Origin: a virus
Reading direction: 5' to 3' (one strand)
Length of the DNA: 64,000 nt
Virus record (IMG/VR): IMGVR_UViG_3300027969_000052
Location: 64,968-128,967 of that record
Positions within the stretch are counted from its first letter, which is position 1. Each line of letters begins with the position of its first letter. The position numbers and the translations under genes are program-made. Positions 3,855 through 49,600 of this stretch are shown piece by piece. The notes below the pieces were generated by a model that was not told the origin of the DNA, made no database searches, and saw only the letters and a program-made list of their open reading frames with translations.

Positions 3855-6800
3855 TTATCCTTCAATTGCCAAGATGAACGGTGTCAAGTTAGCAAACAAT
3901 GACTTAGTAAACGTACGGCCTGATAACACACCAGTTGCCTGACTAATTACCAATCCCGGACCAATACGGAAGTCACCGTTTTGGTCAGTTGATGTAAAGA
4001 ACACCTTACCGTTATTCAATTGAATAACTTCTCTTTCCTGTCTTGGATCTGCTCGACCTATTTGCGGCAATGCGCCGTAGTTAGAACCTGCACCAACATA
4101 CTCAAACAAATAACCAGATGCAGACATATAAGCACGTCTATAGAAATTAATATTTGCTTTATCGGGGAACAATGCCGCATCTGCAACGTTATCTTCTAAT
4201 GTTACGTAATGATGAGTTTCTGTAATAGCATAATAACTCTTACCGCAAAGTACTGTGTTATAGTTACCGCCGCTGATTAAATCGGCCGCTAGCGCATCTA
4301 TTACGTAACCAACATCACGTTTACATAAGGCTTGGTTATATTCAAATCCGTTATACTTTCCGTCAATGTACGTAATTACTTGATTAATTAACGAAGTTGC
4401 TTGAGTTGCTATAATATTTTTAACGTTTAGTAGCGTTGCTCCGTATCCGCTTGTGCTTGGATATTCTATCGCAGGTGCAACTGATGTCCCGTTTGCAACA
4501 ATATCAGTTAAGATAGCAGTTAACGCTGTTAGTCTTGGATGTGCATTAGCTCCGTCGGGTGCAGAGCCGTTAGTAAATTGTGTATATGTATTTTGATAGC
4601 TAACTGCTGGAGCAGTATTTGTTGATACATTTTTCATTAATGTTAACAAATAATTAAATGCGCCCACGGTCTGCGGAATTTCTCCTGGAATCAATGTGCT
4701 TCCAGTTGAATCGAAATATACTAGACCAGCATCAACAGTCTGCCAATTTCCGCCATATGTTAAATCGTAAATTAAACTATGGATAACGTAGTCCAAATCT
4801 CTCTTGCACTTGTCTTGATTATATGTAAACACAGTATATGTTTCATTAATAAAAGTAATTGCTTCAGTTGCAATTAAAACTTTTGCAGATTGAATTGCTG
4901 TTCTTGCTGTTTTTTGACTTGTTGTTGCCCAAGTATAGCTAGGTTCTATAATAATTGGAACTGCATTAACACCGTCTTGAACAATAGTAGCCATGTCGCT
5001 GATTAGATCGGCAATTGTCGTGAGTGCTACAGATCCTTGACCTAACCCATTATCACTAAATCGTGTAACACCGTTTTGATAACTTACGACCGGTGCTAGG
5101 TTTTGTACAACTCGAGCCGCAATAGTATTGATATAGTTAATGCCAACAATAGTTTCTGCTACTTCTCCAGGATTTACACGAACATTGTTGTTGGCGCTAT
5201 TAAAGTACTGAAGTGCCGCATCAACCGACATGCTGTTGCCGCCGTATGTTAAGTCATAGATTAGAGCATCTAATAAGAATCCAACATCTCGTTTGCATTT
5301 ATCTCTGTCATATACTAATGAAGGATATGTTACATGGATATATGCTTCAACTTCTGCCTGGATATATGCTTTATTTCCTTGCAATAACTGACTTGCACTA
5401 GAAACTCCGGTTGCTGTTCCTGGAGGAATAGTGTAGGTCACTGTCGGGCTTGCACTTAAACCGGTTTGAATGATGCTTGCAATATTGGCAAAATCATTAG
5501 TTACTGTTTGTGTAGCAGTAGTACTACTCTGTACTGCATTTAATCCCAAAATATATTCTTTAACAAAATTAAATGCGGCCAGTGTTTCTGGTTTTTCATC
5601 GTTAAGAACATTATCAGCATTACCGCGATAGTAAGCCTGTCCAGATTTAATTGAACGATAGTTTGTTCCTAAAACAATATCCCACTCAACACCGTCGATG
5701 ATGTATCCGATATCGCGTTTACATTTTGTTTCGCTGTAGGTAAAGATTGGATATGTTGCATTAATCCAACCAATAGTTTCTTCCTTGATAAAGTCAAGGT
5801 TATTTAGGATTAACGATTTTCCATTAGCAATGCCTGTATCAAATCCCGAAGGGTTTGGCATATTATAAGCAGGTGCTGTATTGCCACTGATGATATTATT
5901 GATATTAATACCGTCAACGTTAATTATAGAAATTGCTTGAGTAACTGTACTAATTCCGCTTAACTGGTTTGTAAGAGCAGATAGTTTTGAAATAGCATCA
6001 ATTGTTTGTGCTTTTTCTGTCTCTAAGACATATTGACTACCTGGAACATTTCTCAAGTATGCATTTCCGCACTTGATAGATTGATAGTTACTTTGGAATA
6101 ATGCATCCCAAGCAAACCCGTCTAGAATATAACCTAGGTCTCTGCGACAAGTTGCATGGTCGTAAATAAAATATTGGCTATTAATATATTCAATTATTTC
6201 TGCTTGTACAAATGTCTTATTAGCTAGCAATAATGCGGCCGCATCGCTTGCGCCAGGTGCAACAATTCCTTCTTTAGTTGTTGCTGGCACAGCATTTAAA
6301 CCATTAGAAATGATATCTTCTAATGTTTGGAATAGTTCTCCAATTTTAATTGTTGCTTGGGCGCCTTTGCTTAATGCAATATTTGTTACTTGTGTTGCAG
6401 TTGTTTGTAATGCATTGACTAAGGTATTACTTACAATACTTGTAGTCAACGTGTTTAGGTATTGCAATGCTTGAATTTCTTCAGCGCCTTGATCATTACC
6501 TTGAGCAGTTGCACTAGATCCTAACTTAAATGTGCCTGGAGTAATTGGGTCTGGAGCTAATTCACTTGAACGAACGGTGTAATATGCATTGCCAGCAACA
6601 TACATTGTAAAGTAGTTAACATTTGTAGAGTCGCCACCGCCTGCTGAGATACTATCGCTTAATGTAATAGCTTTAAAGTTTACATCTGTAATGATAGTGT
6701 CTTCTGGAATATAACGAGTTCCATTAATATCAGTGTAAGAACCGTATTGATCACGTGCATAAATCTTTTGACCAATAACAATACCTTCTGTATCAATGCC

Positions 6801-9800
6801 GTTAATTGTCACACTACCTGTAGTCAGTGTGCTAGTGTTTACTGCGGCTTGTAGGAAGCCAGGTAATCCTTGAGCATTTGTATATGTTTCAGGCGGCACA
6901 ACTTCCATAATCAATCCAATGTGCGGACGATTGTCCGGATCTGGACAGAATACTTGTACAATTTGACTTTGCGGGAAGAAACCATTTGGATAGTATGGTA
7001 ACACCGGCGGATTATATACTTCGCCGAAGAATTCGCGCTCTCCATATCCTTTTGCAACCAGACAGTAATCACCGAAGTTGGCGTTAGAGTTGGTAATAGA
7101 ACAAATGCCACCATTTTCTACAATAACAGATGTTCCGCAGAAAATCGTAAACACAGATACTAGCTGTGCATAGCCGTTGTTGGTAATTTTAATACCAATA
7201 CCGCCCTGGTTAACTTGTGTAAACGCATCATAAACAAAAGACTGGATCGGTGAACGTTTAGAAACAACACCACCATCAACTAAACTTCCGCCAATTGAGC
7301 CTAACGGATCAATTCGACGTTGTGCCCACCTTGCAGGAATATATTTTTCTTTTGTTGGATATACCCCAGTCTGACCAAAGTATAGTGTGCCGGCTGTGGC
7401 TGGGCCTAATACTGGTTCGCTTAGGTAAATCTTATATCTATCACCACCCAACGACTCTACATCTAAAATAGTCGAAGCTGGTTGAATATCATCTGCGGAA
7501 GAACTGATTAAGTTGAATACTCCAGATCCTTCGTATGCTTCGGGGGCAACATCTGGTCCTTTGGCAATAATATTCTTTAATATTTCGATTAGTCGAGTAA
7601 TGCTTCCTAACGCATAAACTCCACCACCAAAATAATTGTTAATAATTTGTGTAGCACCACTAATTGATGTTAACGCTGTGTTTGTTACAACTTTTTCACA
7701 GACTGTTTTTAGGTATTCCATTGCGGCATTGTTTTGTGGTATTTCACTAGCAATTACGTTTACGCCGCCGGTCCAATAACTTACACCTGCTTCAATAGTT
7801 TTACGATTTCCGCCAATTAATAAATCTTGTGCAATAGCATCAACAATTAAACCAACGTCACGATAGCACTTTTCTTGATTATAGTTAAAGCTATCAGTAC
7901 CATATGTACTGTCAACCCATGCAATAATTTCATTTTGAATAAATGTTCTATTCAAATCTAATAAGATCATTGCTTTTTGTATTGACGGATCTTCGTTCAT
8001 AGTTAAACTTACAGGAACTTTATCAATACCTTCGCTTGGGCCATTATCAATAATATTTGTAATTAATCCCAACATATCTAACAAGACTGTACCAACTTCT
8101 TCAGTTGACGGATTGTTGTTAAATTGCTGTTGTGCTACATTTCCTGCTGAAGGAATAATAGGTTGTTCAGTTATAACTGCTGTAACAATTTGTTTTAACC
8201 TGTCGTATGCCGCAACTGTTTGGTTCTGTTCATTTGGAACCATTGTTGAATTAGCATTAAATCCGTAATAGTAAACTCCAGACATAATTGCTTGTCTATT
8301 ACCGCCGTATAAAATATCGTGGCTTACAGAATCAATTAAGTATCCAACGTCCCTGTAGCACTTGTCCTGATCATACTCGAAGCCCATTGAGTATGTATCG
8401 TAGATGTAGGCAATAGTTTCAGCAACAATAAATTCTTTATTTGCTTCAATCATTAATGCCGCATTAATCACATTATCATTTGTACTGCGAGTTAAACTAA
8501 TAGGGGTCTTTTTGCTTACAACACTAGGACCGTTGGTAATAATATTAGTAATAACATCAACTTTGCCTTGAGCAAGAGTTGCTTCTGTAGCAGTACCGAC
8601 TCCTAAGTTAGTTACTTGAGAAACAACTGCTTGTTTTGGAGATGCTAGCGGAGTTGCTGTTATAATGTCATCTAGTATTGATTTAATATAATTAAATGCC
8701 GCAACTGTTTGTGTGACCTCGCCAGGTATTGCGGTTGATGCCGCATTAAATGAGTAGTAGTAAACGCCGCTTTGAATTGCTTGGCGGTTGCCGCCATATA
8801 ATAAATCAAAGCTAACACTATCAATCATGTAACCAACGTCACGATAGCACAATGCTTGATCATAAGTAAAGCCCGGAGTCTTTGTAGATTCTACATAGGC
8901 CACTGCTTCTGCTTGAATATATGCTTTGTTTGCCTGTAACAAATCGTAGGCTTGTGTTATATTTGGATAGGTACTTGGAGTTAATCCGTTTGCAATAACA
9001 CTATCAGTAACACCGTCAGTTCCGTTCTTTAATATATTAAGAATTACTGTAAAATCTGATTCAACTCTAGATGCTTCTGTAGTTGTTCCTACAGGCAAGT
9101 TTGTAACTTGAGTTACTGTTGACTGGTAGCGTGTTCCAACAGTATTGTTTAACACAATTTTTTGTGCTAGACTAGAAACATATTCTATTGCATTTGTTGT
9201 TGTAGTTAACTCACTAGCAATCGCACCAGTATATCCGTTTTGATTCCAGTATTGTAATCCTGCAAAGGTTGCTTGGCTTGACGTTGTAAACAACAAGTCT
9301 TGGGCGATAGCATCAACAATTAATCGAGTATCTCGTTTACAGGTAGTATCGTCAAACACAAATCCTGGTGTTTTAGTTTGTTCTACATAAGCAATAACTT
9401 CTGCTTGCAAATAACTCTTATTTGCCTGTAACAGATCAAATGCTTTTTGTGCATTTGCTCCTGCAATAGTAATACCATTTGGTATTACAAGATCCGTTAC
9501 TCCAGTAGTTCCGCCGATTAAAATATTTGTAATTGTCGTAAATTCTGTTGCAATAGACTGTGCTTCTATTGCAGTAGCTGGGGGTAGAGTATTGAATAAT
9601 TGTGTAATTGTACTTTGATAACGTACTCCAGACACATCATTACGAATAACTTTTTGTGCAACACTACTTAGATAGTTAATTGCATTTGTTGTTGTAGTAA
9701 GTTCTGATTGGATTAACCCTGTATATCCATTTTGATTCCAATATTGAAGACCGGCAAAATTACTGTTAATGAATCCATTTGATCCCCAACCTAAGTCGCC

Positions 9801-12800
9801 GATTAAACTATCAACAATTAATCCTGTGTCGCGATAACATTTTACTTTGTTATAACTAAAATTAGAATTATTATAAGTGTCGTTAATAAACGCAACGATT
9901 TCGTTTGCTAAGAAAGCACGGTTAGCTCTCATCAATGCAAATGCTCGTTGAACACTTGTGCTGGTACTCTTAGTTAAACTAATAGGAGTCTTGTTGGTTA
10001 CAACACTTGGACCATTATTAATAATGTTTGTAATAACATCAATGAATCCTTCTAAGTCTTCTGACTCTACAGTAGTTGCAGGGGGTAAATTTGTTACTTG
10101 TGTTAACTGATTACCTCTACTACGTGCCACTGGTGTAGCCGTAACAATACTATGTATTAGACCTTTTAGGTGATTGTATGCCGCGATTGTTTCTGGTTTT
10201 TCGTTTGGAATAGCACTTGATGCCGCATTAAACGAATAATAGTAAACTGCGCTCTGGATTGACTGTCTGTTACCGCCATGTAGTAAATCAAAACAAATGC
10301 TGTCGATTATATAGCCAGTGTCTCTTCGACAAGTAGTTTGATTATAAGTAAAGCCAGATGTCTTTGTTGATTCAACATAGGCAATAACTTCATCAATCAA
10401 ATATGCTTTATTGTTTTGTAATTGAGCATAGGCATGTAACACACCCGGAGTTGTTAATTCTTCACCGTTTGGAACAATCTTATCAGTTACACCATCAGTA
10501 CCATTTAGAATAATATCGATCATTAGATCAAAGTTAGTACCAACAGAACTTGATTCTAATACTGTACCAGATGCATTTGCAGTAGATTGTGAAGATACTG
10601 ATTGATATCGAGGACCGGATACATCATTTAAAATAATTTTCTGTGCAACACCACTTAGATAAGTTATTGCATTTGTTGTAGTTGTAAGTTCAGTTCCGAT
10701 TAATCCAGTGTAACCATTTTGATTAAAATACTGAAGACCTGCAAATGTTGATTGACTAGAATTAGCTGTAGGATATAATAAGTCAAACGCAACTGCATCA
10801 ACAATTAGTGCTGTGTCTCTACGGCATTTTGCAGAATTAAACGGAAATGATAGGAACGATTGATTTACATAAGAAACAATTTCTTCTTGAATGAAGGAAC
10901 GATTTGTTTCTAATAAAACTTCCGCAGACATATAGTACGGATCAATAGCACATGCTGGATATACAGTTGGAGCCGCAGTCGGACCATTTTCAATTATGTT
11001 TGTAATAATACCAAATCTATCAGCCAGTGCTTGGGACGCAATGCCCCCGCCAGTTAATACATAGTTAATTACTTGAGTTTTAGTTGCTAAAGATCCTAAT
11101 AGATTTGTAACGGTTTGATTTTTAATTACTTTATCAGCAATGGTATTAATATAGTTAATAGCACCAATTGTTTGTGTTTCTTGACCAGCAATTACACTCG
11201 TAACACCTTTATAATATGCAAGGCCTGCCTCAACCGTTTTTTCATTGCCGCCGGCTAGTGCATCAAAGCTAACGTTTTCTAAAATAATACCAACGTCTCT
11301 GTAGCATAGTTCTTTGTTATAAACAAAATTTGGAAGTGAGTTAACATAGGCAATTACTTCTGCTTTAATAAAATTCTTATTTGCAACTAGCAAGTTGTAG
11401 GCTTTTAGCAATCCTGTTTCGGCTGTTATAGATAAACCAATTGGTTCTAATGACGGTGCACCGCCTGGGCCGACTCTAACTAATCGTGTAATAATATCAA
11501 GATTAGTCGACAACGTTGTTGAGGCCGCGGCCGTACCTGCGTTAGCATTATCTAAAACTTGCGAGATTTCTGATTGATAGAAACTTGTTAATTCTTGACT
11601 TTGTACTACCGCAGAGATTACACTCTTCATGTAATCATATGCTAAAATTGTTTGTGGTTGTTCGTTTGGAATTGCACTCTGAGTTGTGCTATACCCGTAA
11701 TAATAAGTACCTGCTTGTATTACTTGGCGGTTGCCACCACGTAACAAGTCAAATGTTACACAATCAACAATGTATCCAACGTCTCTCTTACAAGTTGCTT
11801 TACTATAAACAAAAGTTGGTGCATTAGATGTAATCCATGCAATAGCTTCTGCTTTTAAAAATTCTTTGTTTGCCTGTAATAGGGCCGCGGCGGCTTGTGT
11901 ACTTGTATTTGATGTTACAGTTGTTCCGTTTGGAATAATTTTACCTGTAATACCAACCGTACCTTCTGTAATAATATTTGTTGCAGTAGTAAACAATGCG
12001 CTAACAGTATTTGCATTACCAATTGTACCAGCTGGCAAGTTTGTTACTTGTGTTAGTGTATTTTGATACGGACTAGATAGTGCTTGTCCGCGAACAACTA
12101 ATTGCGCAATACTATTGATGTAATTAATTGCATTTGTTGTAGTAGTCACTTCTCCAGCAATTTGTGTCGGTGTACTTGTCTGGCTCCAATATTGTAAACC
12201 AGAAAATACAGACTGACTTGTTGAATTATAAATTAAATCTAAACTTAGTCCGTCAATAATTAATCCTGTGTCACGAGCACACTTAGTTGCATCGTATTGA
12301 AAGGGGCCGCCGTATGTTTGATCAACATAAGCAACAACTTGTTCTTGAATGAACGATTTGTTTGCTAGTAGTAATGTTCTAGCATTATAGAATCCAGGAT
12401 TAGGAGGACCACCATTAATTGCTTGTCCTGCATAAATTTGGCCTTCTGTTAATGTAACTGTAATTTCTTGTGAGCCGGCTTCGTATGTAGAAATGCCGAC
12501 ACCTTCTGGGACTTGAACTGTTTGATTAGGCACAAACATTGTACCATCGTATAACCATGGACCAGATTGGTTGGTACAGTTTTGAATATATGGTGAGTGG
12601 AATACGTCAATCGGTTGACCATTGTCACCTTGTGGAGGAAACGCAGTTGCGTATGCACCTCTGTTTGTATCTGAAGTATAGCCTGTTCCTGGGAAACGTC
12701 CTGAACGGCCGTTGTACATCATTAATTGTGCAACATAACAGCCTTGACGAACGTGGAATAAGTCTTGAGTCTTGTTAACAGGTTCTATAACTGTTGTACG

Positions 12801-13661
12801 TAAGTCAGAGCCAATTACAGAAGTATATGGCTTCATTTCAATTGGATTGTTTTCTAGATAGCGACCTGGTGCTACTTTAATACTTGTGCCAGGTTTGTAT
12901 AACGGACTTTTTGTTGCACCTGAAACTGTACGGCAAGCACGGCTAGCATCAATGGCTCCGCCGTCGTTAGTATCACTACCGTCTTCATTTACATATAAAG
13001 TGTTTGCGGTAACTGGGCCGGTGCCTAATGGTGTGCCACCCCAAATTTTAACATTACCTTTTAAATTAATAATGCCGTCATTAGGAACAATATCAATGTT
13101 GCCAGGTAATATGTTGGTAACTGTGTTACCAGACATGTGCATATTGCCAGCAAATAAATCTTTAAAGTATCCCTGGTTCCAATTTTGGCTAGCCGAGCCG
13201 ATATTATATGTGTTTGGAACTTGTGGAATTAAGTCTGAAATAAACTCAGCACCAACTTGCAACGTATCAGTAGCAGTTGTATCGCCTAATCGAATATTTC
13301 CGTCAGCTGTAATATTTCCAGATGCGTGTAAGTTACCAACAACTTCAGTGTCTGCATCTAACCAAATTTTATTGTTGCCGGCTGGGTCAATGTGGATTGG
13401 ACCAAGGGTAGATCCAATAGTACCGCTTGTTAGCGATTTAGTAACTGTAATTAAGCCAAGTGTGGAAGTATTTGAGACACGTAGTACACCTACGTTTGCG
13501 GTGCCGTTGACATCTAAGTCATATTGCGGAGCCGATGTTTTAACACCTATACGGCCAGTTTGAACATCTAAGTATAAGAGATCAGTTTCAACTGATAAGT
13601 TTACTCCGTCACGTAGCAAGTTACTTGCAAGTAACGGACCTGTAATTCGACCTACGGCCAT
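3855..13661 (-). CDS. 3268-aa virion spike/fibre protein: pectin-lyase-like beta-helix interrupted by 15 C-x-R-D helical repeats
   Basis: GAGGAG RBS; N-terminal GRIGVKTSAPQYDLDVNG fibre motif; beta-helix cap TLYVNEDGSDTNDG...IKVAPGRYLE...SVIGSDLRTTVIEP; 15 copies of (Y/F)xxxxCxRDxxxxxxxxxxD, most followed by a GGN-like turn. Confidence 0.9.
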   Translation of the reverse strand: MAVGRITGPLLASNLLRDGVNLSVETDLLYLDVQTGRIGVKTSAPQYDLDVNGTANVGVLRVSNTSTLGLITVTKSLTSGTIGSTLGPIHIDPAGNNKIWLDADTEVVGNLHASGNITADGNIRLGDTTATDTLQVGAEFISDLIPQVPNTYNIGSASQNWNQGYFKDLFAGNMHMSGNTVTNILPGNIDIVPNDGIINLKGNVKIWGGTPLGTGPVTANTLYVNEDGSDTNDGGAIDASRACRTVSGATKSPLYKPGTSIKVAPGRYLENNPIEMKPYTSVIGSDLRTTVIEPVNKTQDLFHVRQGCYVAQLMMYNGRSGRFPGTGYTSDTNRGAYATAFPPQGDNGQPIDVFHSPYIQNCTNQSGPWLYDGTMFVPNQTVQVPEGVGISTYEAGSQEITVTLTEGQIYAGQAINGGPPNPGFYNARTLLLANKSFIQEQVVAYVDQTYGGPFQYDATKCARDTGLIIDGLSLDLIYNSTSQSVFSGLQYWSQTSTPTQIAGEVTTTTNAINYINSIAQLVVRGQALSSPYQNTLTQVTNLPAGTIGNANTVSALFTTATNIITEGTVGITGKIIPNGTTVTSNTSTQAAAALLQANKEFLKAEAIAWITSNAPTFVYSKATCKRDVGYIVDCVTFDLLRGGNRQVIQAGTYYYGYSTTQSAIPNEQPQTILAYDYMKSVISAVVQSQELTSFYQSEISQVLDNANAGTAAASTTLSTNLDIITRLVRVGPGGAPSLEPIGLSITAETGLLKAYNLLVANKNFIKAEVIAYVNSLPNFVYNKELCYRDVGIILENVSFDALAGGNEKTVEAGLAYYKGVTSVIAGQETQTIGAINYINTIADKVIKNQTVTNLLGSLATKTQVINYVLTGGGIASQALADRFGIITNIIENGPTAAPTVYPACAIDPYYMSAEVLLETNRSFIQEEIVSYVNQSFLSFPFNSAKCRRDTALIVDAVAFDLLYPTANSSQSTFAGLQYFNQNGYTGLIGTELTTTTNAITYLSGVAQKIILNDVSGPRYQSVSSQSTANASGTVLESSSVGTNFDLMIDIILNGTDGVTDKIVPNGEELTTPGVLHAYAQLQNNKAYLIDEVIAYVESTKTSGFTYNQTTCRRDTGYIIDSICFDLLHGGNRQSIQSAVYYYSFNAASSAIPNEKPETIAAYNHLKGLIHSIVTATPVARSRGNQLTQVTNLPPATTVESEDLEGFIDVITNIINNGPSVVTNKTPISLTKSTSTSVQRAFALMRANRAFLANEIVAFINDTYNNSNFSYNKVKCYRDTGLIVDSLIGDLGWGSNGFINSNFAGLQYWNQNGYTGLIQSELTTTTNAINYLSSVAQKVIRNDVSGVRYQSTITQLFNTLPPATAIEAQSIATEFTTITNILIGGTTGVTDLVIPNGITIAGANAQKAFDLLQANKSYLQAEVIAYVEQTKTPGFVFDDTTCKRDTRLIVDAIAQDLLFTTSSQATFAGLQYWNQNGYTGAIASELTTTTNAIEYVSSLAQKIVLNNTVGTRYQSTVTQVTNLPVGTTTEASRVESDFTVILNILKNGTDGVTDSVIANGLTPSTYPNITQAYDLLQANKAYIQAEAVAYVESTKTPGFTYDQALCYRDVGYMIDSVSFDLLYGGNRQAIQSGVYYYSFNAASTAIPGEVTQTVAAFNYIKSILDDIITATPLASPKQAVVSQVTNLGVGTATEATLAQGKVDVITNIITNGPSVVSKKTPISLTRSTNDNVINAALMIEANKEFIVAETIAYIYDTYSMGFEYDQDKCYRDVGYLIDSVSHDILYGGNRQAIMSGVYYYGFNANSTMVPNEQNQTVAAYDRLKQIVTAVITEQPIIPSAGNVAQQQFNNNPSTEEVGTVLLDMLGLITNIIDNGPSEGIDKVPVSLTMNEDPSIQKAMILLDLNRTFIQNEIIAWVDSTYGTDSFNYNQEKCYRDVGLIVDAIAQDLLIGGNRKTIEAGVSYWTGGVNVIASEIPQNNAAMEYLKTVCEKVVTNTALTSISGATQIINNYFGGGVYALGSITRLIEILKNIIAKGPDVAPEAYEGSGVFNLISSSADDIQPASTILDVESLGGDRYKIYLSEPVLGPATAGTLYFGQTGVYPTKEKYIPARWAQRRIDPLGSIGGSLVDGGVVSKRSPIQSFVYDAFTQVNQGGIGIKITNNGYAQLVSVFTIFCGTSVIVENGGICSITNSNANFGDYCLVAKGYGEREFFGEVYNPPVLPYYPNGFFPQSQIVQVFCPDPDNRPHIGLIMEVVPPETYTNAQGLPGFLQAAVNTSTLTTGSVTINGIDTEGIVIGQKIYARDQYGSYTDINGTRYIPEDTIITDVNFKAITLSDSISAGGGDSTNVNYFTMYVAGNAYYTVRSSELAPDPITPGTFKLGSSATAQGNDQGAEEIQALQYLNTLTTSIVSNTLVNALQTTATQVTNIALSKGAQATIKIGELFQTLEDIISNGLNAVPATTKEGIVAPGASDAAALLLANKTFVQAEIIEYINSQYFIYDHATCRRDLGYILDGFAWDALFQSNYQSIKCGNAYLRNVPGSQYVLETEKAQTIDAISKLSALTNQLSGISTVTQAISIINVDGININNIISGNTAPAYNMPNPSGFDTGIANGKSLILNNLDFIKEETIGWINATYPIFTYSETKCKRDIGYIIDGVEWDIVLGTNYRSIKSGQAYYRGNADNVLNDEKPETLAAFNFVKEYILGLNAVQSSTTATQTVTNDFANIASIIQTGLSASPTVTYTIPPGTATGVSSASQLLQGNKAYIQAEVEAYIHVTYPSLVYDRDKCKRDVGFLLDALIYDLTYGGNSMSVDAALQYFNSANNNVRVNPGEVAETIVGINYINTIAARVVQNLAPVVSYQNGVTRFSDNGLGQGSVALTTIADLISDMATIVQDGVNAVPIIIEPSYTWATTSQKTARTAIQSAKVLIATEAITFINETYTVFTYNQDKCKRDLDYVIHSLIYDLTYGGNWQTVDAGLVYFDSTGSTLIPGEIPQTVGAFNYLLTLMKNVSTNTAPAVSYQNTYTQFTNGSAPDGANAHPRLTALTAILTDIVANGTSVAPAIEYPSTSGYGATLLNVKNIIATQATSLINQVITYIDGKYNGFEYNQALCKRDVGYVIDALAADLISGGNYNTVLCGKSYYAITETHHYVTLEDNVADAALFPDKANINFYRRAYMSASGYLFEYVGAGSNYGALPQIGRADPRQEREVIQLNNGKVFFTSTDQNGDFRIGPGLVISQATGVLSGRTFTKSLFANLTPFILAIEG

Positions 13662-25693: not shown

Positions 25694-26560
25694 ATGGCAG
25701 AAAATACACCAAAAATCAATCCGCTGATGAGCATCATGCGTCAGCCCAAAGTCTATATAACGCTTCCTAGCAGGGGAAGATATTACCCAGAGGGCAGTCT
25801 TGATCCCACAGTTAATGGAGAATATCCTGTATATTCAATGACTGCCAAGGACGAGATAATATTAAAAACTCCCGATGCACTAATGAACGGTCAGGGGTTA
25901 GCCGATGTTATTCAAAGTTGTATGCCTAACATTAAGGATGCGTGGACGGTGCCTGCTATAGATCTAGATGTAATCCTTGTAGCAATTAGATTAGCTACGT
26001 ATGGTAATACTATGACGTTAACTATCAATCACGAAACGATGGACGATTCTATGGATTACGAAATCAGCCTCCAGGAAATACTAGAACAACTACAATCAAA
26101 TACTACTTGGGAAGAACGGTTAGAAATACGGCCCGACCTTGTAGTATTTTTAAAACCTATTGATTATAAAACACAGACCTACACTCAAATTAGTGAGTTT
26201 GAAACCCAACGATTAATGAGTGTTATTAGGGATGATACACTTGACGAAGATACTAAATTAGCACAGTTCAAGACGTCATTTGAAAAAATGACTTCAAGAG
26301 CAATGGATATCATTGTTAAAGCAGTTCATCGAATTGAAAGTGCTAGCGGAACTGTTACTGATCCTGAATTCCTAGAAGAATTTATGAAACAATGCGACAG
26401 AGAAGTGTTTGATAAAATCAAAAAACGAATTGCAGAGTTAAATGAAAAAAATCAGCTCAAACCATTGAGAATCGCTAGCACAGAAGAAATGCTTGCAAAA
26501 GGTGCTCCCGAATTTATTCAAGTTCCATTTAGTTTTGATGCCGCAAATTTTTTCGGATAA
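25694..26560 (+). CDS. gp26: gp26-like baseplate hub / tail assembly chaperone
   Basis: PKVYITLPS, MTAKDEIIL, DLDVILVAIRLATYG motifs; C-terminal ..NFFG; GGAG RBS. Confidence 0.7.
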   Translation: MAENTPKINPLMSIMRQPKVYITLPSRGRYYPEGSLDPTVNGEYPVYSMTAKDEIILKTPDALMNGQGLADVIQSCMPNIKDAWTVPAIDLDVILVAIRLATYGNTMTLTINHETMDDSMDYEISLQEILEQLQSNTTWEERLEIRPDLVVFLKPIDYKTQTYTQISEFETQRLMSVIRDDTLDEDTKLAQFKTSFEKMTSRAMDIIVKAVHRIESASGTVTDPEFLEEFMKQCDREVFDKIKKRIAELNEKNQLKPLRIASTEEMLAKGAPEFIQVPFSFDAANFFG

Positions 26561-26800: not shown

Positions 26801-27880
26801 TTACTCGCCCATATTCTTAATGGGCAGTCCTTTAATGTTTGGTTCTGGAGCAGTTACATCTTGTTGTCCAGCGGCCTTGTTAAAGGCTATCGTGTTGTCG
26901 GCAGGTACTTCTTCATCTGCTTGTGCTGGAGGAAGCCCAGCATTTTTTCTAATAGAATCTAATTGTTGCTCTGCCGAATCGAGTGATTGTTTTGCATAAT
27001 CGATCACATCTTGACGACGATCTGATCTGACTACATTTACAGTCTGCATTGCGTTGTCAATTGCCTGGCGCCCTTGGGGAACTCCGACCTTTTGTTTGTT
27101 AGAAGCAGTAGCATTTGTAGTGTTTACGTTGTTTTGCGGATCTGTCTCGTTGCTTGTTGGAGCGGCCGCATTTCTAACTGCGGCTGGAGTATCTGCAGTC
27201 GGTTCAGCTTGTCCTACTTCCGGGCTCGTCGGTTGTGCAACATCAGTCGGATCAGCTTGAGATGCTTGAGGTGCTTGTTGCACTTGAGCGCCAGCATGTT
27301 GCTGTGTTGCGGCCTTGATAGCTTTGGCAACTATATTCATTTTTAAGGTATCGCTCGGAGCTTCAACCAACATGTTTAAAATATTACGGATACTTTCTTG
27401 GGCTGTTGGAGCAACTGCGGCTGGACTGGTTCCGGTTACACCAGGATTTCTGGCATTAGACCACACAGAAGGTTTTTGTTCTGGGGCAGGTTCCTCCATC
27501 GGTCCGCCAGCCTCCTGCGGAGTTGGATGTGTAATATCATCGTCTGCTGGCTCGTCGACTTGAGTAGATTGAGCGATTACCTGTTTAGCATTATCTAACG
27601 GATAACCTTTCTTTTGCAAGTAAGCAAGTAGACTTGCTTCTGTAGGTTGCTCACCTGTTTGCCCCAATAGCTTTTGATAACCAGCCATTACTTGATTAGC
27701 TAACGCACCTACATTTAGACGTCCTTGTGCTTGTGCGCTAAAGTTAGGTGTAATACCTGTTGTCTTATTGATTAAGTTACCAGTACCTGCCGCTACTTTG
27801 TTTCCTAATTTACTTAGAAAACCCATAGGCTGAGCTTCGTTAACATTACCAGATTCGTTTACAAGTTCATTAATTTGCAT
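26801..27880 (-). CDS. Low-complexity A/P/Q-rich protein, possible internal head protein
   Basis: Start MQINELVNES at 27880 with GGAG RBS and late promoter CATAAATA at 27901-27908; the track's 27931 start lies upstream of the promoter. Confidence 0.7.
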   Translation of the reverse strand: MQINELVNESGNVNEAQPMGFLSKLGNKVAAGTGNLINKTTGITPNFSAQAQGRLNVGALANQVMAGYQKLLGQTGEQPTEASLLAYLQKKGYPLDNAKQVIAQSTQVDEPADDDITHPTPQEAGGPMEEPAPEQKPSVWSNARNPGVTGTSPAAVAPTAQESIRNILNMLVEAPSDTLKMNIVAKAIKAATQQHAGAQVQQAPQASQADPTDVAQPTSPEVGQAEPTADTPAAVRNAAAPTSNETDPQNNVNTTNATASNKQKVGVPQGRQAIDNAMQTVNVVRSDRRQDVIDYAKQSLDSAEQQLDSIRKNAGLPPAQADEEVPADNTIAFNKAAGQQDVTAPEPNIKGLPIKNMGE

Positions 27881-27900
27881 TTTATAGTCTCCAACAAGGA

Positions 27901-27908
27901 TATTTATG
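27901..27908 (-). promoter_or_regulatory. Late promoter motif CATAAATA
   Basis: TAAATA core 20 nt upstream of ATG 27880. Confidence 0.7.
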
Positions 27909-27909
27909 T

Positions 27910-28364
27910 TATTAAATGAGCTAACGCTCATTTGCTTCTGCGCTTCGCTTGAAGCATTTTTAGTTATCTAATACTACGAAGTAGTTTAACTATTATCTAG
28001 ATATAATGGTCACACTTTACCCAGGTAACCGGGTAAAGAAAACTTGGCATTATCTGAGTACGCAAGTCACTTAGCGTTGTAGCATTACTGAGGCGGTCAT
28101 CCTGTACCCCTAGCTACGTCTTATTATGACGGTATGCTATTGTATATACGCTAACACATACAATAACACCGGGGTTTTTCTCCCCTCTTTTAGCTCTTAT
28201 TCACTCTATTCAAATATCAAAACCGCGGCAGATTGCGATCGTCGTCCTGTTAAGGATGGTTGATAAGTGCTCTGTACAGCGCAGAGGCTTCCGTCCCCGT
28301 TATTATCCGGTTGTCGCTAGGCACCCGATTTAAGCCGGTGCGAGCATATCCTGTAAGACTGAGC
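27910..28364 (-). ncRNA. Putative large structured non-coding RNA and/or origin-like element (unassigned family)
   Basis: ~455 nt without a plausible ORF in a densely coding genome; more than 10 stems; G-U pairs work only on the minus strand; loop TTAGCG is complementary to a downstream CGCTAA (pseudoknot). Confidence 0.65.
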
Positions 28365-28793
28365 CTAGATTTTGTTGATTATGTGAGAGCCATGGACACG
28401 GACTGAGATTTGTCCGTTATAGTAATCTGCTGATTCTAATACTTTGCGGTTGAATTGTTCAAGGGCCTCGATGTAAGAGCATACTGCTTTGCTTTTGCAA
28501 TAATGCAGGATCTCTCGCGTGAATTGTTCTTTGCCTAATTTTAAAACGTCTGTGTTTAATTCTAAGTTAGATCCGTAATATTCTTGCCAGTCGCTGTCAA
28601 TTTTACTACGTATTTTCTTTTTCTTCTTGTTGCCGTTCTTTAACTTTACAGTCTTGTAGGTCGTTTTACTAAACTTTGCTAATTTTTTGCCAATATACAT
28701 GCGCCCCGTGACGGTGTTAGTGATAAGATAAACAAATCCAACACAGTCCTCGGGTAGTTGTTCAATGACAGTACCTTGATAAGTCCAAGACAT
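28365..28793 (-). CDS. Stand-alone GIY-YIG nuclease (EndoII/DenA-sized)
   Basis: GFVYLITNTVTGRMYIGKK, YYGS, FTREIL, E and YYNG motifs; 142 aa with a K-rich insertion and no C-terminal DNA-binding module. Confidence 0.85.
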   Translation of the reverse strand: MSWTYQGTVIEQLPEDCVGFVYLITNTVTGRMYIGKKLAKFSKTTYKTVKLKNGNKKKKKIRSKIDSDWQEYYGSNLELNTDVLKLGKEQFTREILHYCKSKAVCSYIEALEQFNRKVLESADYYNGQISVRVHGSHIINKI

Positions 28794-28987
28794 TAAGCAG
28801 TCTTGGCTTCCTTGCGGGCATTCTTGGTTGCTGTGATTTCGTTACGGCGAGCTTTGATTAGCTTGCCTAGCTCTGCTAGAGCTTTGCGTGATCGTGTACC
28901 GGCCGCATTGTTGCCGCTTTCAAATTTTGTATCTTCTGCTTCCCATGCTGTAACAGCATCTTTAATTGCTTGAATTGTTGCGCTCAT
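28793..28987 (-). CDS. Histone H1-like Hc1-family nucleoid protein
   Basis: 64 aa; KFESGNNAAGTRSRKALAELGKLIKARR matches the Hc1 N-terminal GNKAAxxRxR helical hairpin. Confidence 0.75.
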   Translation of the reverse strand: MSATIQAIKDAVTAWEAEDTKFESGNNAAGTRSRKALAELGKLIKARRNEITATKNARKEAKTA

Positions 28988-32993: not shown

Positions 32994-33015
32994 TGTTATA
33001 GAATCTCCCATTAAT

Positions 33016-43679: not shown

Positions 43680-46600
43680 ATGAAAAGAAAAAAAAGTCCT
43701 AACGAGCTAGTTGACGCATACAACGCAGACGCATCTGACCATCAACGTCAAACTGCTAACCTTTTACCGGGATACCTTCAAACAGATAAAAATAAAAGAT
43801 TCTTATCTGCAACATTAGACAAACTAATTGAAGTTCCACAAATTGAACGTATTAATGCATTTGTCGGTAGCAAATTAACTAATACATTTAATCCTGAGAC
43901 AGATCAATATTTAGATAGCACAACAGAACTTGCAAAAGATTATCAATTAGAGCCTGCATTAATAATCAAAAATGCAAAGAATAATATTGATAAAGTCCAA
44001 ACCTATGATGATTTATTATCTAGTTTGGCATTTGCTGGCTCGCCCGCTAAAAATCATGATAGAATTTTACAGGCTAAAACATTTAGTTATAATCCCCATA
44101 TTGACTGGGATAAGTTTGTAAACTATAATCAATACTATTGGTTAGAAGCTGGTCCTGATTTAATCGAAATCACAGGACCAATAAAAGCCACTGTTAGCAC
44201 ATACACAGTAACTGACAGTCCTGATACAGATGTTTGGATTATTAGTCCAGACGGCCTAACACCAAATCCTGTTCTAACATTGTTTAGAGGCATGACGTAT
44301 GTGTTTAATGTAGACAGCAGTCATAATTTTTATATCAAGACAGCAATAAGTTACGGTAAAGAAGATACCTACGACAAAGCATTAAACAATGGACCTAAAC
44401 AAGGTCAGGTAATTTTAACAGTTGACGATAACACACCGTCGACTTTATTCTATGTTGCTAGCGATGACCAACGGATTGCTGGCCGAATTATTGTTAAAAA
44501 ATTAACTGAAAATTCTGAAATTGATGTTGAAAAAGATATCTTAGGAAAGACGACTTATAGTTCAGGTAACGATGTACAATTCACTAATGGACTAATGGTA
44601 TATTTTAGCGGCCAAGTTACTCCGGAAAAGTATAAAAATAAAAGATATATTGTTGAGGGTGTTGGCGAAGAGATTGTTTTAATCGATTTTGATACATTAA
44701 AGAATAATGTCAACGCATCAAATAATTTGGACACCGACTTTGACGTTGAGCCGTTTGATAAGTTTCCGTTCGACGACTTTAGAAATGCTCCGATATCTCC
44801 TGAGTATGTAACTATTAATCGAGCAAGTAGAGACTTAAATCCGTGGACTCGGTATAATCGCTGGTTCCATAAAGATGTTATTGCGGCCTCTGCTACAGCT
44901 AACGGCACTGATCCCGTTTATCCTGTCGATAAGCGAGCCAAGAGACCTATTATTGAATTCCGACCAAACATCAAATTGTATAATTTTGGTTACTCGGCAA
45001 TGTCAAATATTAACTTAATGGATAACTCAACTCTTGATGCATTTACTAATGTTGAAAGAAGTTTTGGTTATTATGTTGATGGAGTAAAACTAGAAGAAGG
45101 TTTTAGAGTTATATTCAATGCAGATACTGATCCGTTAGTTAGAGGTCGAGTTTATACTGTAAAATTTGAAGACCTTGACGGGAATCAAAGAATTAATCTT
45201 ATTGAAGATCCTCAAGGAATCCCATATGACGGCGCAACGATTGTTAATTCCGACGGAACTAACTATAAAGGGTCTAGTTGGTTATGGAACGGAACAAGCT
45301 GGGATCCAGCCCAACAAAAGACAACAATTAATCAAGCGCCGATTTTTGATTTGTTTGATGAGAATGGCATAAGTTTTAGTAACACTGATTACTATCAAGG
45401 CAGTTTTGCAGGCACACGCATATTTGGATATACTGAAGGCACCGTCTATGATTCAGTATTAGGATTAAATTTAAAATTCTTAAATGTGGCAAACATTGGA
45501 GATTTCTTATTCTCTAATTATTTTAATACAGATAGTTTTGTTATTTCAAATACAGCTAAAAACATAGTATTCCCGGTCAGTTCTGGTTATTTAAAAATTG
45601 CCACAGATAGTTCAACTTCATTTAATAACGTATGGGTAGAATCAGAAAGTTCTCGTATTCCTATTTTACAATACAACATAATTACTGAGATTTCTAACAT
45701 AGTAGAAATTAATGCAATTGACTATCCCGGTTGGACTGAAGATCTTACAATCGATGTTTGGATAAATGATAAAAAACAAAAGTTAGGTACTGATTTTAAT
45801 TTTTCCGTCCAAGATCAATTTTATTTTGCAATTTTTGTAAACAATTTAGCATTACATGATAAAGTATTATTCAAGATATATACTACTCGAGCACCGAATG
45901 CATTAGGTTACTACGAGCCTAGCCCGGCGCTAACAAACAATCCAACGAACGGTCCTATAGCACAAGTGACTCTTGCAGAAATGTCTGATAACTTTAAAAC
46001 TATAGTAGAACGTTTAGATAATTTTAGCGGTAACGTTATAGGAGAAAATAATTTTCGAGACCTGGGACAAGCATCAAAGTACGGCACTCGATTAATTAGT
46101 CATCAGTATCCTCTTAGCTTTGCCCAGCTTTTTTTAGGACAGCAAGAATATAATTTAGTAACAGCTATAAGAAAAGTTGCAAACGATTATTACTATTATA
46201 AAAATTCTTTTGTCAATAAACTACTTACAATCCCTAAAGAAACATTGCCGAGAGATGCAGTAGATCAAATACTAGTTGAATTAAATTTAGGTAAAGATAT
46301 TAACTTTCCTTACGGTTTTAGTGATATGTTGACTTATGGAAAAGATTATAAATCTAGAACCTATACAGTTACAGACACGAGAATTACTAGTTACAGTATT
46401 GATTCATCGTTTGACAGTTCAGCACTAACAGAAAGAGCCATCTTAGTTTATAGAAATGATTTAATCCTAACTCATGGAGTAGACTATACATTTGACAAAT
46501 ATCAAGCAAATGTAACTTTTAATTTTACATTAACATTAGGTGATGTTATTGTTATTAAAGATTATGCAACAACTGAAGGTTGTTACATTCCTCCAACACC

Positions 46601-49600
46601 TACAAAACTTGGATTGTTTCCAAAATATCAACCTCAGTTATACATAGACGACACATACTTAACATCAACAAAAGTCCTACAGGGGCACGATGGCAGTATT
46701 ATGGTTGCTTTTAATGATTATAGAGATGACATTTTATTTGAATTTGAAACTAGAATTTTTAATAACATAAAAGTTTCTTATAATGCTGATCTAATAAATG
46801 TAAATTCAATTCTGCCCGGAGCCTACAGAACAAATGCCTTTACTCCTGTAGAAGTTACACAAATATTAGAAGTAGAATTTTTACGCTGGGCAGGAATGTC
46901 GGGAGTTGACCACACTACTAATTCTGGAACTTCTCAAGGACAACCTCGCACATACAATTACAGAGAATCCTCTACCGGAGCAATACAAACTTTAACAGTT
47001 CCTGGTCATTGGAGAGGAATTTTTAAATATTTTTACGATACTGATCGACCACATACTAGTCCTTGGGAAATGTTAGGCTTCACAGAAAAACCTCTTTGGT
47101 GGACAACTGTATACGGATTAGCACCATACACTTCAGGAAATACAATCTTATGGAGAGACATTGCAAATGGTGTTATTAAGCAAGGTAGTCGAGCAGGAAC
47201 TTGGTTAGAATATTCTCGACAAAATCTTCTTGATTACTTGCCTGTGGATGAATACGGAAATTTAAAAGATCCCGTTAGTATTGGACTTATTAAAGATTTA
47301 TCGTTTACAACTATTGATGCCCCTTGGAAATTTGGTGATCATGCTCCGGCTGAAACGGCATGGAGAAGAAGTGTCCTTTGGCCATTTGCAGTTCAAGTAC
47401 TAGCCGCGCTAACGAATCCTGCGGCCTATGCGGCTCTAATGTTTGATCCTGTGAGAATTAAAAAATCAATAGCAGGGCAGTACAGCTACGGTGATAACGA
47501 AGAATTATTAAAAATTAATAATGTAATCTTATACAGAGATACAATTGATAATCAAAGACAACTAGCATCGGGATATAGTGTGATGCTAATTGAACATGGA
47601 TTACAAAAATCTTCAAATTTCTTAACTTCGTTAAAACTTGATATTTCTAATATCGAGTATAGATTAGTTTATAAAGCAGAAGGTTTTATATCAAAAGAAA
47701 AACTAAAAGTTGTCATTGATTCAGTTGATCCAACTAGCACTAATCCTGGTGTATTATTGCCCGCTGAAGATTATAATATTGTCTTATCTAAAAGCAATCC
47801 TATAAGCACATTTAGAATTAGCGGAGTGATAGTCCAGAAAGGTCAAGGATTTTGGACAGTTCGAGGATATGACAAGTATAAACCGTACTTTGAAATTGTT
47901 GAACCGATACACGGCCTGGGAGATTCTGAAATAAGAGTTGGTGGTAAAGGTGAAAACTATCTTACATGGGCGCAAAATAAATTTTATCAATCGGGTCAAG
48001 TAGTTTTTAACAGTAATATATTTTATCGTACAAAGTCAAGTCATACATCCGATACATCCTTTGACGTAACTAAGTTTCAAAAATTAAACGGGTTACCAGT
48101 CACTGGCGGTATATCGGTTGCTAAATCTAAAAATTACAACAGTACAATTACAAAGATTCCTTATGGAACAAAGTTTTTAACTCAACAAGCTATTGCAGAT
48201 TTCTTGCTTGGCTACGGAAAATATCTTGAAAATCAAGGGTTTGTCTTTGACTATCTAAATTCCGAATTTAGCGAAATAATGAATTGGGAATTTAGCACCA
48301 AAGAATTTTTATTCTGGGCAACACAAAACTGGTCAGTCGGGTCTATTATCACATTAAGCCCATTTGCAGACAAATTAAAATTTAGCACTACAAGTGGAAT
48401 CGGTGATGCAGTCTACGGAGTGGCAGATGATCTGTATAATGAAAATTATGAATTTAGTTTACTATCGGCTGACGGAAGTGCGTTTCCGAAAAATGGATTT
48501 CTTTTAAGTAGGCTCGACGGCGAATTCGAAATTAGTACAGCATTTCCTAGAGTAGGTGTTTACTATGCTCAGTTCAATATGATACAAAAACAACATGCTA
48601 TTGTTTTTAACAATTATAGTATGTTCAATGATATCATATACGATGTAGAAACTGGATACCGCCAGCGCCGAGTAAAATTAATTGGCTTTAGAACTAGCGA
48701 ATGGACAGGCGGGTTTACAAGTCCGGGATTTGTCTTTGATGAAGCAATAGTCAACGACTGGCAAGCATATAAAGATTATAGTGCAGGCGAAGTTGTAAGA
48801 TACAACGGCAGATATTACGGCGCAATAACAAAGATATTTGGCGCAGATACATTTAATTTTGATAACTGGAATAAGCTAGCTGAAGAACCATCCCCTGGGC
48901 TATTACCAAACTTTGATTATAAAATTAGTCAGTTTGAGGATTTTTATAGTTTAGATATTGATAATTTTGATACGGGCCAGCAACAAATGGCACAACATCT
49001 AACAGGATATAGTCCCCGTGTTTACTTAGATAATATCTTTAATGACGGTATTGCTCAATACAAGTTCTATCAAGGATATATTCGTGAAAAGGGTACAGCT
49101 AATGCAATTAACAAAATATCTAAAGCTACAGTTAATAGTCTAAAAGGTAAGGCAACATTTAATGAGTCGTGGGCTTTCCGTATAGGACATTTTGGCGGTT
49201 ATAACACTTACCAAGAATTGGAAATAAATCTCGACGACAGTAAGTTTATACAAAATCCACAGATTGTTCAATTTATTGATTATGAAAAAATTACAAATGA
49301 TTTTACGTATTACAAACCTGTAAAAGATGTTCTGATTCAACCAGAAGACTATGATTGGAAAACAGTATTCCCGACATTTGATCCTATCGCATTCGGCGAC
49401 TCTAACAACATCGATTATATAACTCCTCTTCCAAATGCAGGGTATGTGCGGTTAGATGATATAACAGCAACAGCATTTAATAAAAATAGTCTATTGGACA
49501 TTGCAAGTGCAGATGCTATTAAAGAAGGATCAACATTTTGGCTCGGATTCCGGGAAGATGGCGATTGGGATGTATTACGTTATACTAGACAGAAAAATGC

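Follow-up and report, generated by a model that had tools for sequence, protein, structure and literature searches.

The viral DNA analysed here, called the window throughout, is a stretch of 64,000 nucleotides (nt) of IMG/VR record IMGVR_UViG_3300027969_000052 (positions 64,968 to 128,967), and the element under study is a structured RNA encoded on its minus strand directly behind the gene of a GIY-YIG nuclease. The window forms the second half of a 129-kb viral record (CheckV completeness 37%). Its source is a giant phage of T4-like type from fresh water, one of an uncultured lineage; the locus recurs in a related record of 345 kb that is 99% complete, and the DNA runs containing the stretch carry the labels freshwater, lake or river metagenome. 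Read along the minus strand, the locus comprises a gp47-like gene, a gp46-like gene, two small open reading frames (ORFs), a GIY-YIG gene of 142 amino acids (aa), a gap free of ORFs and an ORF of 359-376 aa. The gap runs from 28364 to 27932 and its 433 nt hold no ORF of at least 60 aa which, with ORFs ranked at that cut-off, makes it the longest such gap in the window, as had been claimed in an earlier note made from the sequence alone. That note placed an unassigned large structured phage RNA at 28040-28364, starting at the stop codon of the nuclease gene, and described it as rich in GC; the noted interval is indeed richer than the window (0.465 vs 0.382), but it covers the 5' three quarters of a longer RNA gene. 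It is now close to certain that the locus carries a minus-strand gene for a non-coding RNA of about 435 nt, with a head that belongs to the Rfam family RF01718, a middle containing two pseudoknots and a tail with a twinned word, which is present in single copy and lies behind a SegE-type nuclease gene encoding the nuclease domain only. It is not a wholly new RNA, being a long form, so far uncatalogued, of an orphan motif already known.

The extent of the RNA was established by comparison. Relatives were gathered with the core pattern of the motif, which identified at least 120 stretches in viral contigs. The sequence ACUCRGAURA lies no more than 330 nt downstream in 75 of 122 pattern matches, and the remaining 47, which were not classified singly, include many in GC-rich coding DNA and several that are cut by a contig end. 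Seventy loci had enough flanking sequence, and the 64 that are distinct were aligned with MAFFT (alignment A1, viral contigs). Conservation of sequence can be followed from the final codons of the nuclease gene as far as approximately position 27914, with the start of the RNA put some 10-20 nt after the stop codon and its 3' limit near 27914; the boundaries first proposed were therefore displaced at both ends, the start not being the stop codon itself and the 3' limit (28040) falling about 125 nt short. An nhmmer profile of A1 searched against the genome of the window (G000) returned a single match, 93317-92881, equivalent to window positions 28350-27914 (E 3e-103), and one copy of the RNA was found in each of 5 large related records. 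No match to 27900-28450 was found by blastn among 50,697 phage records and, among the matches listed for bacterial genome contigs (nhmmer, E < 1e-3), there were 120 stretches, none of which is a true member of the family. The nuclease gene, the RNA and the parts of the RNA are as follows.

28365..28793, minus strand: gene of the 142-aa SegE-type GIY-YIG nuclease, nuclease domain only, with the stop codon some 15-20 nt ahead of the RNA
27914..28350, minus strand: the entire conserved RNA of about 435 nt, made up of three domains, ends inferred from conservation
28212..28346, minus strand: domain 1, the Polynucleobacter-1 RNA, from cmscan and helix covariation
28341-28337/28325-28321, 28286-28282/28274-28270, 28256-28253/28248-28245 and 28240-28235/28226-28221, minus strand: helices of domain 1
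28265-28260/28220-28215, minus strand: junction stem of domain 1
28171..28185, minus strand: hairpin GGGG/CCCC, varying in sequence and length in relatives, from covariation and RNAalifold
28135..28168, minus strand: 14-bp stem with a 6-nt loop TTAGCG (28154-28149), the loop being the 5' strand of pseudoknot 1
28126..28130, minus strand: GUCAU, 5' strand of pseudoknot 2, pairing with AUGAC at 28100-28096
28079..28117, minus strand: hairpin GUAGC/GCUAC enclosing GGGGU/GCCUC, with a near-invariant loop ACAGGAUGACC that holds the 3' strand of pseudoknot 2
28071..28076, minus strand: CGCTAA, 3' strand of pseudoknot 1, partner of the loop at 28154-28149
28049..28055, minus strand: first copy of the twin box, AGAUAAU, preceded by ACUC
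28015..28038, minus strand: hairpin CUUUACCC...GGGUAAAG between the boxes, followed by conserved UGUGAC (28014-28009)
27992..27998, minus strand: second copy of the twin box, AGAUAAU, preceded by AUCU
27933..27956, minus strand: penultimate hairpin UGCUUC/GAAGCA with a conserved GAGCG-NN(N)-AGCGAA core (GA-rich internal loop and GNRA-type loop)
27915..27932, minus strand: terminal hairpin AAUGAGC/GCUCAUU with UU(U)A after it, the probable 3' end of the RNA

The identity of the head domain was provided by Rfam. At gathering thresholds, cmscan of the whole window gave a single match, to RF01718 (Polynucleobacter-1) at 28212-28346 on the minus strand, with 84.8 bits against a gathering score of 37, an E value of 1.5e-16 and all 141 model positions (1-141) aligned. 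The 5' 135 nt are thus a full-length, high-scoring member of RF01718, and the five 5' helices named in the earlier note are the RF01718 helices; a significant match to a described family is the outcome that the note itself had named as refuting it, and the word unassigned is not tenable for these 135 nt. In the relatives of A1, pairing stands at 90.8-100% in four of these helices, and between 3 and 5 pairs covary in each: GCACC/GGTGC (99.7% paired, double changes in 5 of 5 pairs), CTCTG/CAGAG (90.8%, 3 of 5), TATCAA/TTGATA (100%, 4 of 6) and GATCGC/GCGGTT (100%, 4 of 6). The fifth, TCCT/AGGA, is 96.9% paired and invariant and hence uninformative. The Polynucleobacter-1 motif was reported by Weinberg et al. 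(2010, Genome Biol 11:R31, PMC2864571), where the table lists it as a probable RNA from 'Burkholderiales, fresh water/estuary' and scores it as likely cis-regulatory ('y'). The habitat agrees with the freshwater labels of the present stretch. As catalogued, RF01718 is a motif of 141 nt, of the small RNA (sRNA) type and without a known function; here it is the first third of a phage RNA of about 435 nt which, beyond the entry in that table, has two pseudoknots and the twin boxes downstream and a GIY-YIG gene upstream. The 3' two thirds of the RNA match no Rfam family at its gathering score. A literature search under the names Polynucleobacter-1 and cow-rumen-2 (a second Rfam motif discussed below), which did not cover wider terms, returned no account of the long form.

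The support for the structure as a whole is comparative, since the minimum free energy (MFE) z-scores are null (-0.04 for the minus strand and +0.20 for the plus strand) and give no thermodynamic signal. When a structure of 89 pairs was scored on A1, 85.2% of cells were paired, compared with 72.9% in shuffles and 37-47% in slid controls, and the covariation score was 0.363 against 0.161 in shuffles; none of 500 shuffles reached the observed value of any measure. Changes on both sides were seen in 64 of the 89 pairs tested. The helices proposed from the sequence alone are all present on the minus strand at the positions assigned to them, and the covariation in A1 supports the structure as a whole, though not one of the helices (GTC/GAC, below). 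Orientation follows from the invariant G-U pairs of A1 (GU in 64/64, UG in 64/64 and GU in 58/64), which on the plus strand would be A-C, together with the minus-strand match to Rfam, in agreement with the strand originally called.

Within the middle domain, the best-supported element is pseudoknot 1, in which the TTAGCG loop pairs with CGCTAA; it is 93.5% paired, all six pairs show double changes, and relatives carry TTCACG/CGTGA, ACAATA/TATTGT or ACAGCATT/AATGCTGT in its place, so that the pseudoknot proposed in the earlier note is upheld. The 14-bp stem that presents the loop is 74% paired with 13 of 14 pairs covarying, and it was recovered by RNAalifold. The GGGG/CCCC hairpin, of variable length, is 58.7% paired in the MAFFT alignment, with double changes in all four pairs, and was likewise recovered unaided by RNAalifold. 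Covariation is also seen in GTAGC/GCTAC (93.4% paired, 4 of 5 pairs) and in the nested GGGGU/GCCUC hairpin (98.1%, 2 of 5). A second pseudoknot, absent from the earlier note, joins GUYRU (28130-28126) to the loop sequence AYRAC (28100-28096); 99.1% of its cells are paired, with covariation in 3 of the 5 pairs (UA 41/CG 23; GC 44/AU 19; UA 54/GC 6/AU 2). A GTC/GAC helix (28130-28128 with 28068-28066) had been proposed for the same 5' strand. It is 94.8% paired yet has no double changes and performs no better than shuffles and, as its 5' strand covaries with the hairpin loop, it is displaced by pseudoknot 2, which explains that strand better. With the middle-domain alignment as its sole input, RNAalifold returned the same nested helices. 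Four relatives (L008, L076, L084 and L067; A1 columns 340-390) carry insertions of 40-50 nt in the hairpin with the ACCGGAYRACC loop, consisting of short tandem repeats rich in TATAG.

The tail is built as a repeated module consisting of GUGAC, approximately 6 nt, AYYY, a 7-nt box and a hairpin. The two copies of the box agree letter for letter in 63 of the 64 distinct relatives, in which the word takes 7 forms; the figure carries a slight bias toward identity, since copy 2 was chosen as the best match anchored on TCT in a span of about 110 nt. A further set of loci was seeded with the nuclease protein, comprising the best 80 of 570 GIY-YIG relatives, and exact twins are present in 61 of these 80, with three further variants of the word; in the other 19, the contig ends too early (8), there is no match to the RNA (4) or the strict expression does not fit (7). 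Between the close relatives L038 and L086, a G to A change has occurred in both boxes at once. Mutual information ties the variable positions of each box to those of its twin (0.88-1.22), and no other column exceeds about 0.5.

No helix was found for the box stretches in domain 3, and no exact reverse complement of the box lies at a consistent place within 1.5 kb on either side in the 64 loci. Partners for the box that tolerate G-U pairs were considered near -158, but these coincide with the invariant UUGAUUGUUUGA in domain 1 and lack covariation. A third site changing in step is absent from the 12.8 kb common to L038 and L086, and in the 129-kb record the RNA's own two modules alone were found. 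Across four large genomes with three forms of the word among their RNAs, joint change at aligned sites is again confined to the RNA's own two, in a comparison of low power in which 11-21 kb align. The box word occurs 11 and 14 times in the window against approximately 8 expected and is not enriched. Three candidates were rejected: an ORF-linked pair at -6 turned out to consist of unrelated ribosome-binding regions that belong to non-orthologous proteins; a mini-ORF or translational bypass (a codon plus stop, with GUG seven codons upstream) is ruled out by the variable spacing from GUGAC to the box in module 1 (21, 22 ... nt); and neither the self-complementarity of AUCURGAU at box 2 nor a pairing between AUCU and box 1 is backed by compensation in the GCAUAAU lineage.

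The remaining parts of the tail are hairpins. That between the boxes is 91% paired in A1, and 3 of its 8 pairs covary. The UGCUUC/GAAGCA stem varies in sequence and keeps its complementarity across 63 tails; in A1, where it is poorly aligned, pairing is 76% and all 5 pairs covary. The core that it encloses, UGAGC-GNRA-GCGAA (27951-27938 and relatives), has tandem G-A pairs beside a 2-bp stem under a GNRA-type cap and resembles a protein-binding or tetraloop-docking motif; a likeness to the hammerhead was rejected, as the tandem G-A part alone is present and there is no Rfam match. The terminal hairpin has stems that differ in sequence yet are complementary in the printed tails, and it is 46.8% paired in A1, where many rows are cut short. 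A terminator scan of the minus strand called only the domain 1 helix at 28240-28221, and not the terminal hairpin at 27932-27915.

The evidence for transcription is slight. A contig of 212 nt from an RNA library spans 28194-28407, running from the 3' end of the nuclease gene into the RNA, and is a weak hint of a transcript given that carry-over of DNA is possible. The assembled contigs of RNA library X15 include some identical to the window on the flanking genes and none on 27903-28347, the uncovered part being uninformative, and library X16 holds three contigs of relatives on parts of the RNA, although such libraries may contain DNA.

The gene immediately upstream encodes a protein matching Pfam family PF19835 (SegE_GIY-YIG; E 2.5e-32), in which residues 3-129 cover profile positions 1-123 of 123, and PHROG 447 (E 8e-36). 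No second domain was found by Pfam, and the best relative in the PDB (E 0.061) is uninformative. The association between this gene and the RNA holds in both directions. Among the loci found through the RNA, a full-length GIY-YIG homologue lies directly upstream in 67 of 74 that could be assessed, a count that includes those identified by tblastn; the idea that some loci hold frameshifted remnants of the gene was rejected, as tblastn reveals 12 further full-length, single-frame homologues. The seven loci without a GIY-YIG gene comprise one with a PD-(D/E)XK endonuclease in the nuclease slot (L016; PF24608, E 2.5e-29), three with unassigned ORFs of 264-283 aa and three with none. The slot ORFs of L034, L054 and L113 are those of 264-283 aa and have no Pfam match; in L054 and L113 they begin MGISLFTGCSYTAG..., reminiscent of block I of the SGNH/GDSL hydrolases. 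In the protein-seeded set, 78 loci have room downstream, and the RNA follows on the same strand in 74 of them, starting less than 50 nt after the ORF in 67; the exceptions include tail-only forms and loci with another gene in between, and 4 of the 78 have no RNA. Some close GIY-YIG homologues (among L383, L394, L427, L411, L412, L422, L428 and L436) are followed by a twin-box tail without a head detectable by Rfam, or by no detectable RNA. The tail of L383, L394 and L427 lies at +590 to +651 after the GIY-YIG ORF, and in L383 a 92-aa ORF stands between the two. The sequences of such loci suggest that domains of the RNA may be exchangeable as modules.

The likeness of the RNA to a second orphan motif was also assessed. 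Cow-rumen-2 (RF02947), which is listed in the Rfam 15 paper (PMC11701678), aligns over its whole model with 28063-28167 on the minus strand, although at 20.3 bits (E 0.3 in a 601-nt search) against a gathering score of 66. The two agree in the order of their conserved letters (a UUAGC hairpin loop, then GUAGC, ACAGGAUGACC and UAA-GC), and in the rumen/gut type a tail hairpin has a copy of one word on either side, as in ACGGAAUAU. The head domain is unlike that of the window, and the GUAGC/GCUAC pairing is of the window type. The loci of the rumen/gut type were collected with a pattern derived from the window, so that 16 shared letters are present by construction. A covariance model of the window-type middle domain (R1, 152 positions) scored window-type members at 125-148 bits and the rumen/gut type at 11.8-17.2 bits (E 0.4-0.8): with default filters and 100 loci, one rumen/gut locus reached 17.2 bits (E 0.38), and with filters off and 18 loci, two loci of that type reached 12.8 and 11.8 bits (E 0.44-0.77) at the correct place. 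The likeness is therefore architectural and not statistically established, and the RNA is not filed under RF02947. RNAs of the cow-rumen-2 type (L122, L123, L133, L135, L143, L182 and others) extend about 150-200 nt beyond the 106-nt model on each side, with a promoter-like TTTACA-N17-TATAAT upstream and a word of 9-10 nt repeated on either side of the tail hairpin. RF02947, too, apparently covers only part of a larger RNA.

Other features of the window lie apart from the RNA. A 64-aa ORF at 28793-28987 on the minus strand, the stop codon of which overlaps the start codon of the GIY-YIG gene, belongs to the Hc1 family (chlamydial histone H1-like; PF07432, E 3.5e-13) and is an unusual protein in a phage. 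Two giant ORFs are present, one of 3268 aa at 3855-13661 on the minus strand and one of 4699 aa at 43680-57779 on the plus strand, the latter with homologues of similar length in the 3 related large genomes examined.

The explanation favoured for these observations, which we regard as possible rather than probable, combines a stable RNA acting in trans, a domesticated nuclease of the homing type and boxes that are read twice by a lineage-specific partner. The RNA would be a stable product with a function away from its own gene, and the nuclease an enzyme that keeps itself and the RNA gene together and favours the inheritance, or the amplification, of both genes in mixed infections. The twin boxes would be exposed recognition words, each read by the same partner, which could be a protein (dimeric or with two sites) or else a nucleic acid encoded at another locus; one partner reading both boxes would explain why the copies change jointly. 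The precedent is SegB, a GIY-YIG enzyme encoded among the transfer RNA (tRNA) genes of T4 and T6, which is reported to cut in tRNA genes and to bring about preferred inheritance of the tRNA region (PMC2330249) and, in a 2026 study, to drive recombination-dependent amplification of neighbouring anti-defence RNA genes, its homologues being enriched beside tRNAs (PMC13096335). Here too a GIY-YIG nuclease gene adjoins a non-coding RNA gene in a T4-like phage. The present protein differs in being of the SegE-type Pfam family, of 142 aa and without an extra domain, in its near-universal linkage, and in its neighbour, which is one large ornate RNA and not a group of tRNAs; a role in homing would be by analogy only.

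Several observations weigh against this explanation. The sporadic presence expected of a homing gene is not seen, as the nuclease is intact in 67 of 74 RNA loci, and a near-universal, intact gene is unlike a patchy, decaying selfish one and fits an obligate partnership between nuclease and RNA equally well. In contrast to the Seg enzymes, the 142 aa of the protein include nothing recognisable as a DNA-binding domain. The RNA-seeded and protein-seeded sets share contigs and are not independent, and no reader of the boxes was found in the RNA, its 1.5-kb flanks, the 12.8 kb shared by close relatives, the 129-kb record or the alignable or gene-linked parts of four large genomes.

An obligate partnership could take the form of a nuclease-RNA particle, with the RNA as scaffold, regulator or targeting subunit of a minimal GIY-YIG enzyme and the boxes as its specificity elements. 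The two-way linkage (67/74 and 74/78), the position of the RNA 3-49 nt after the ORF, a protein that is nuclease domain only (residues 3-129 of 142) and boxes that change fast and in step would all fit. Such a particle is nevertheless unlikely: no GIY-YIG enzyme is known to be RNA-guided, the seven RNA loci lacking a GIY-YIG gene, one of them with a PD-(D/E)XK enzyme, keep the RNA and its twin boxes, four nuclease loci have no RNA, and a word of 7 nt is short for a guide and had no matching target in the searches made. Less probable still is the stronger form, in which the two make up one machine, the RNA supplying what the nuclease lacks and the fast-changing boxes setting the target; this would be a programmable GIY-YIG nuclease, a class with no known member so far. 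Among the large ornate RNAs of bacteria and phages that adjoin nuclease genes, HEARO, which serves as a guide RNA, invites comparison. It too is a big multi-helix RNA beside a small nuclease gene (RF02033; name in PMC11701678), but there is no match in sequence or model and the nuclease is of another family.

The RNA could instead act in cis, as a structured 3' untranslated region that stabilises or autoregulates the nuclease mRNA or as a leader or riboswitch for the next gene. The 'y' scored for Polynucleobacter-1 (PMC2864571) and the RNA-library contig bridging the end of the ORF and the RNA are consistent with this, as is the start of the 359-376-aa ORF about 35 nt 3' of the last hairpin in the window. 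However, loci differ in the gene that comes next, and this speaks against a leader: an ORF of at least 200 aa starts on the same strand within 60 nt of the RNA in only 23 of 64 loci, and in at least 10 the next large ORF is convergent and of 268-290 aa, like that at 25694-26560 of the window (a T4_baseplate family protein). Furthermore, some 435 nt with two pseudoknots and 13 helices exceed the needs of known stabilisers, and the related cow-rumen-2-type RNAs have the promoter-like sequence of their own upstream; action in cis is accordingly improbable. A self-splicing intron or other ribozyme tied to a homing endonuclease gene is suggested by the large RNA with its long-range pairings and GNRA-type loop, and by the classic occurrence of GIY-YIG genes as group I intron passengers in T4 (PMC2988022). 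It is very improbable, since the four Rfam families returned at E up to 10 in 27850-28450 include no such RNA, each flanking ORF (the Hc1-like one upstream and that downstream) is a separate gene, complete with a start and a stop of its own, and the neighbours vary between loci. The same search agrees with the lack of any match to group I and II introns and RNase P in the earlier note, and ARAGORN, finding 0 genes in the window, with the lack of one to tRNA and transfer-messenger RNA. Identity of direct repeats inside one replicon, coupled with divergence between replicons, is typical of iterons, which raises the possibility that the locus provides a replication origin or primer RNA, with the twin boxes as DNA-level iterons for a lineage-specific initiator; the locus also lies beside recombination genes 46/47 and the baseplate module. 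This scenario is equally remote, as the GC skew makes no turn at the locus (the sign change, near 33,000, falls where gene orientation flips), there are two repeats only, the helices covary at the level of RNA and no initiator gene was identified. The cis-regulatory, ribozyme and origin readings are thus each less likely than a trans-acting RNA with a domesticated nuclease.

In summary, of the large structured phage RNA first proposed, the multi-junction, pseudoknotted, minus-strand character stands, whereas its unassigned status and its 3' limit do not. An orphan Rfam motif of 2010 is the head of a doubly knotted phage RNA of about 435 nt, and the boundaries of RF01718, and probably those of RF02947 too, would need revision. 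The RNA joins a small group of large, ornate RNAs, the dimensions of which hint at an elaborate function, and it is almost always coupled to the gene of a stripped-down nuclease. The pair of short words changing together is a rare signature, which points to a specific partner and offers an experimental handle.

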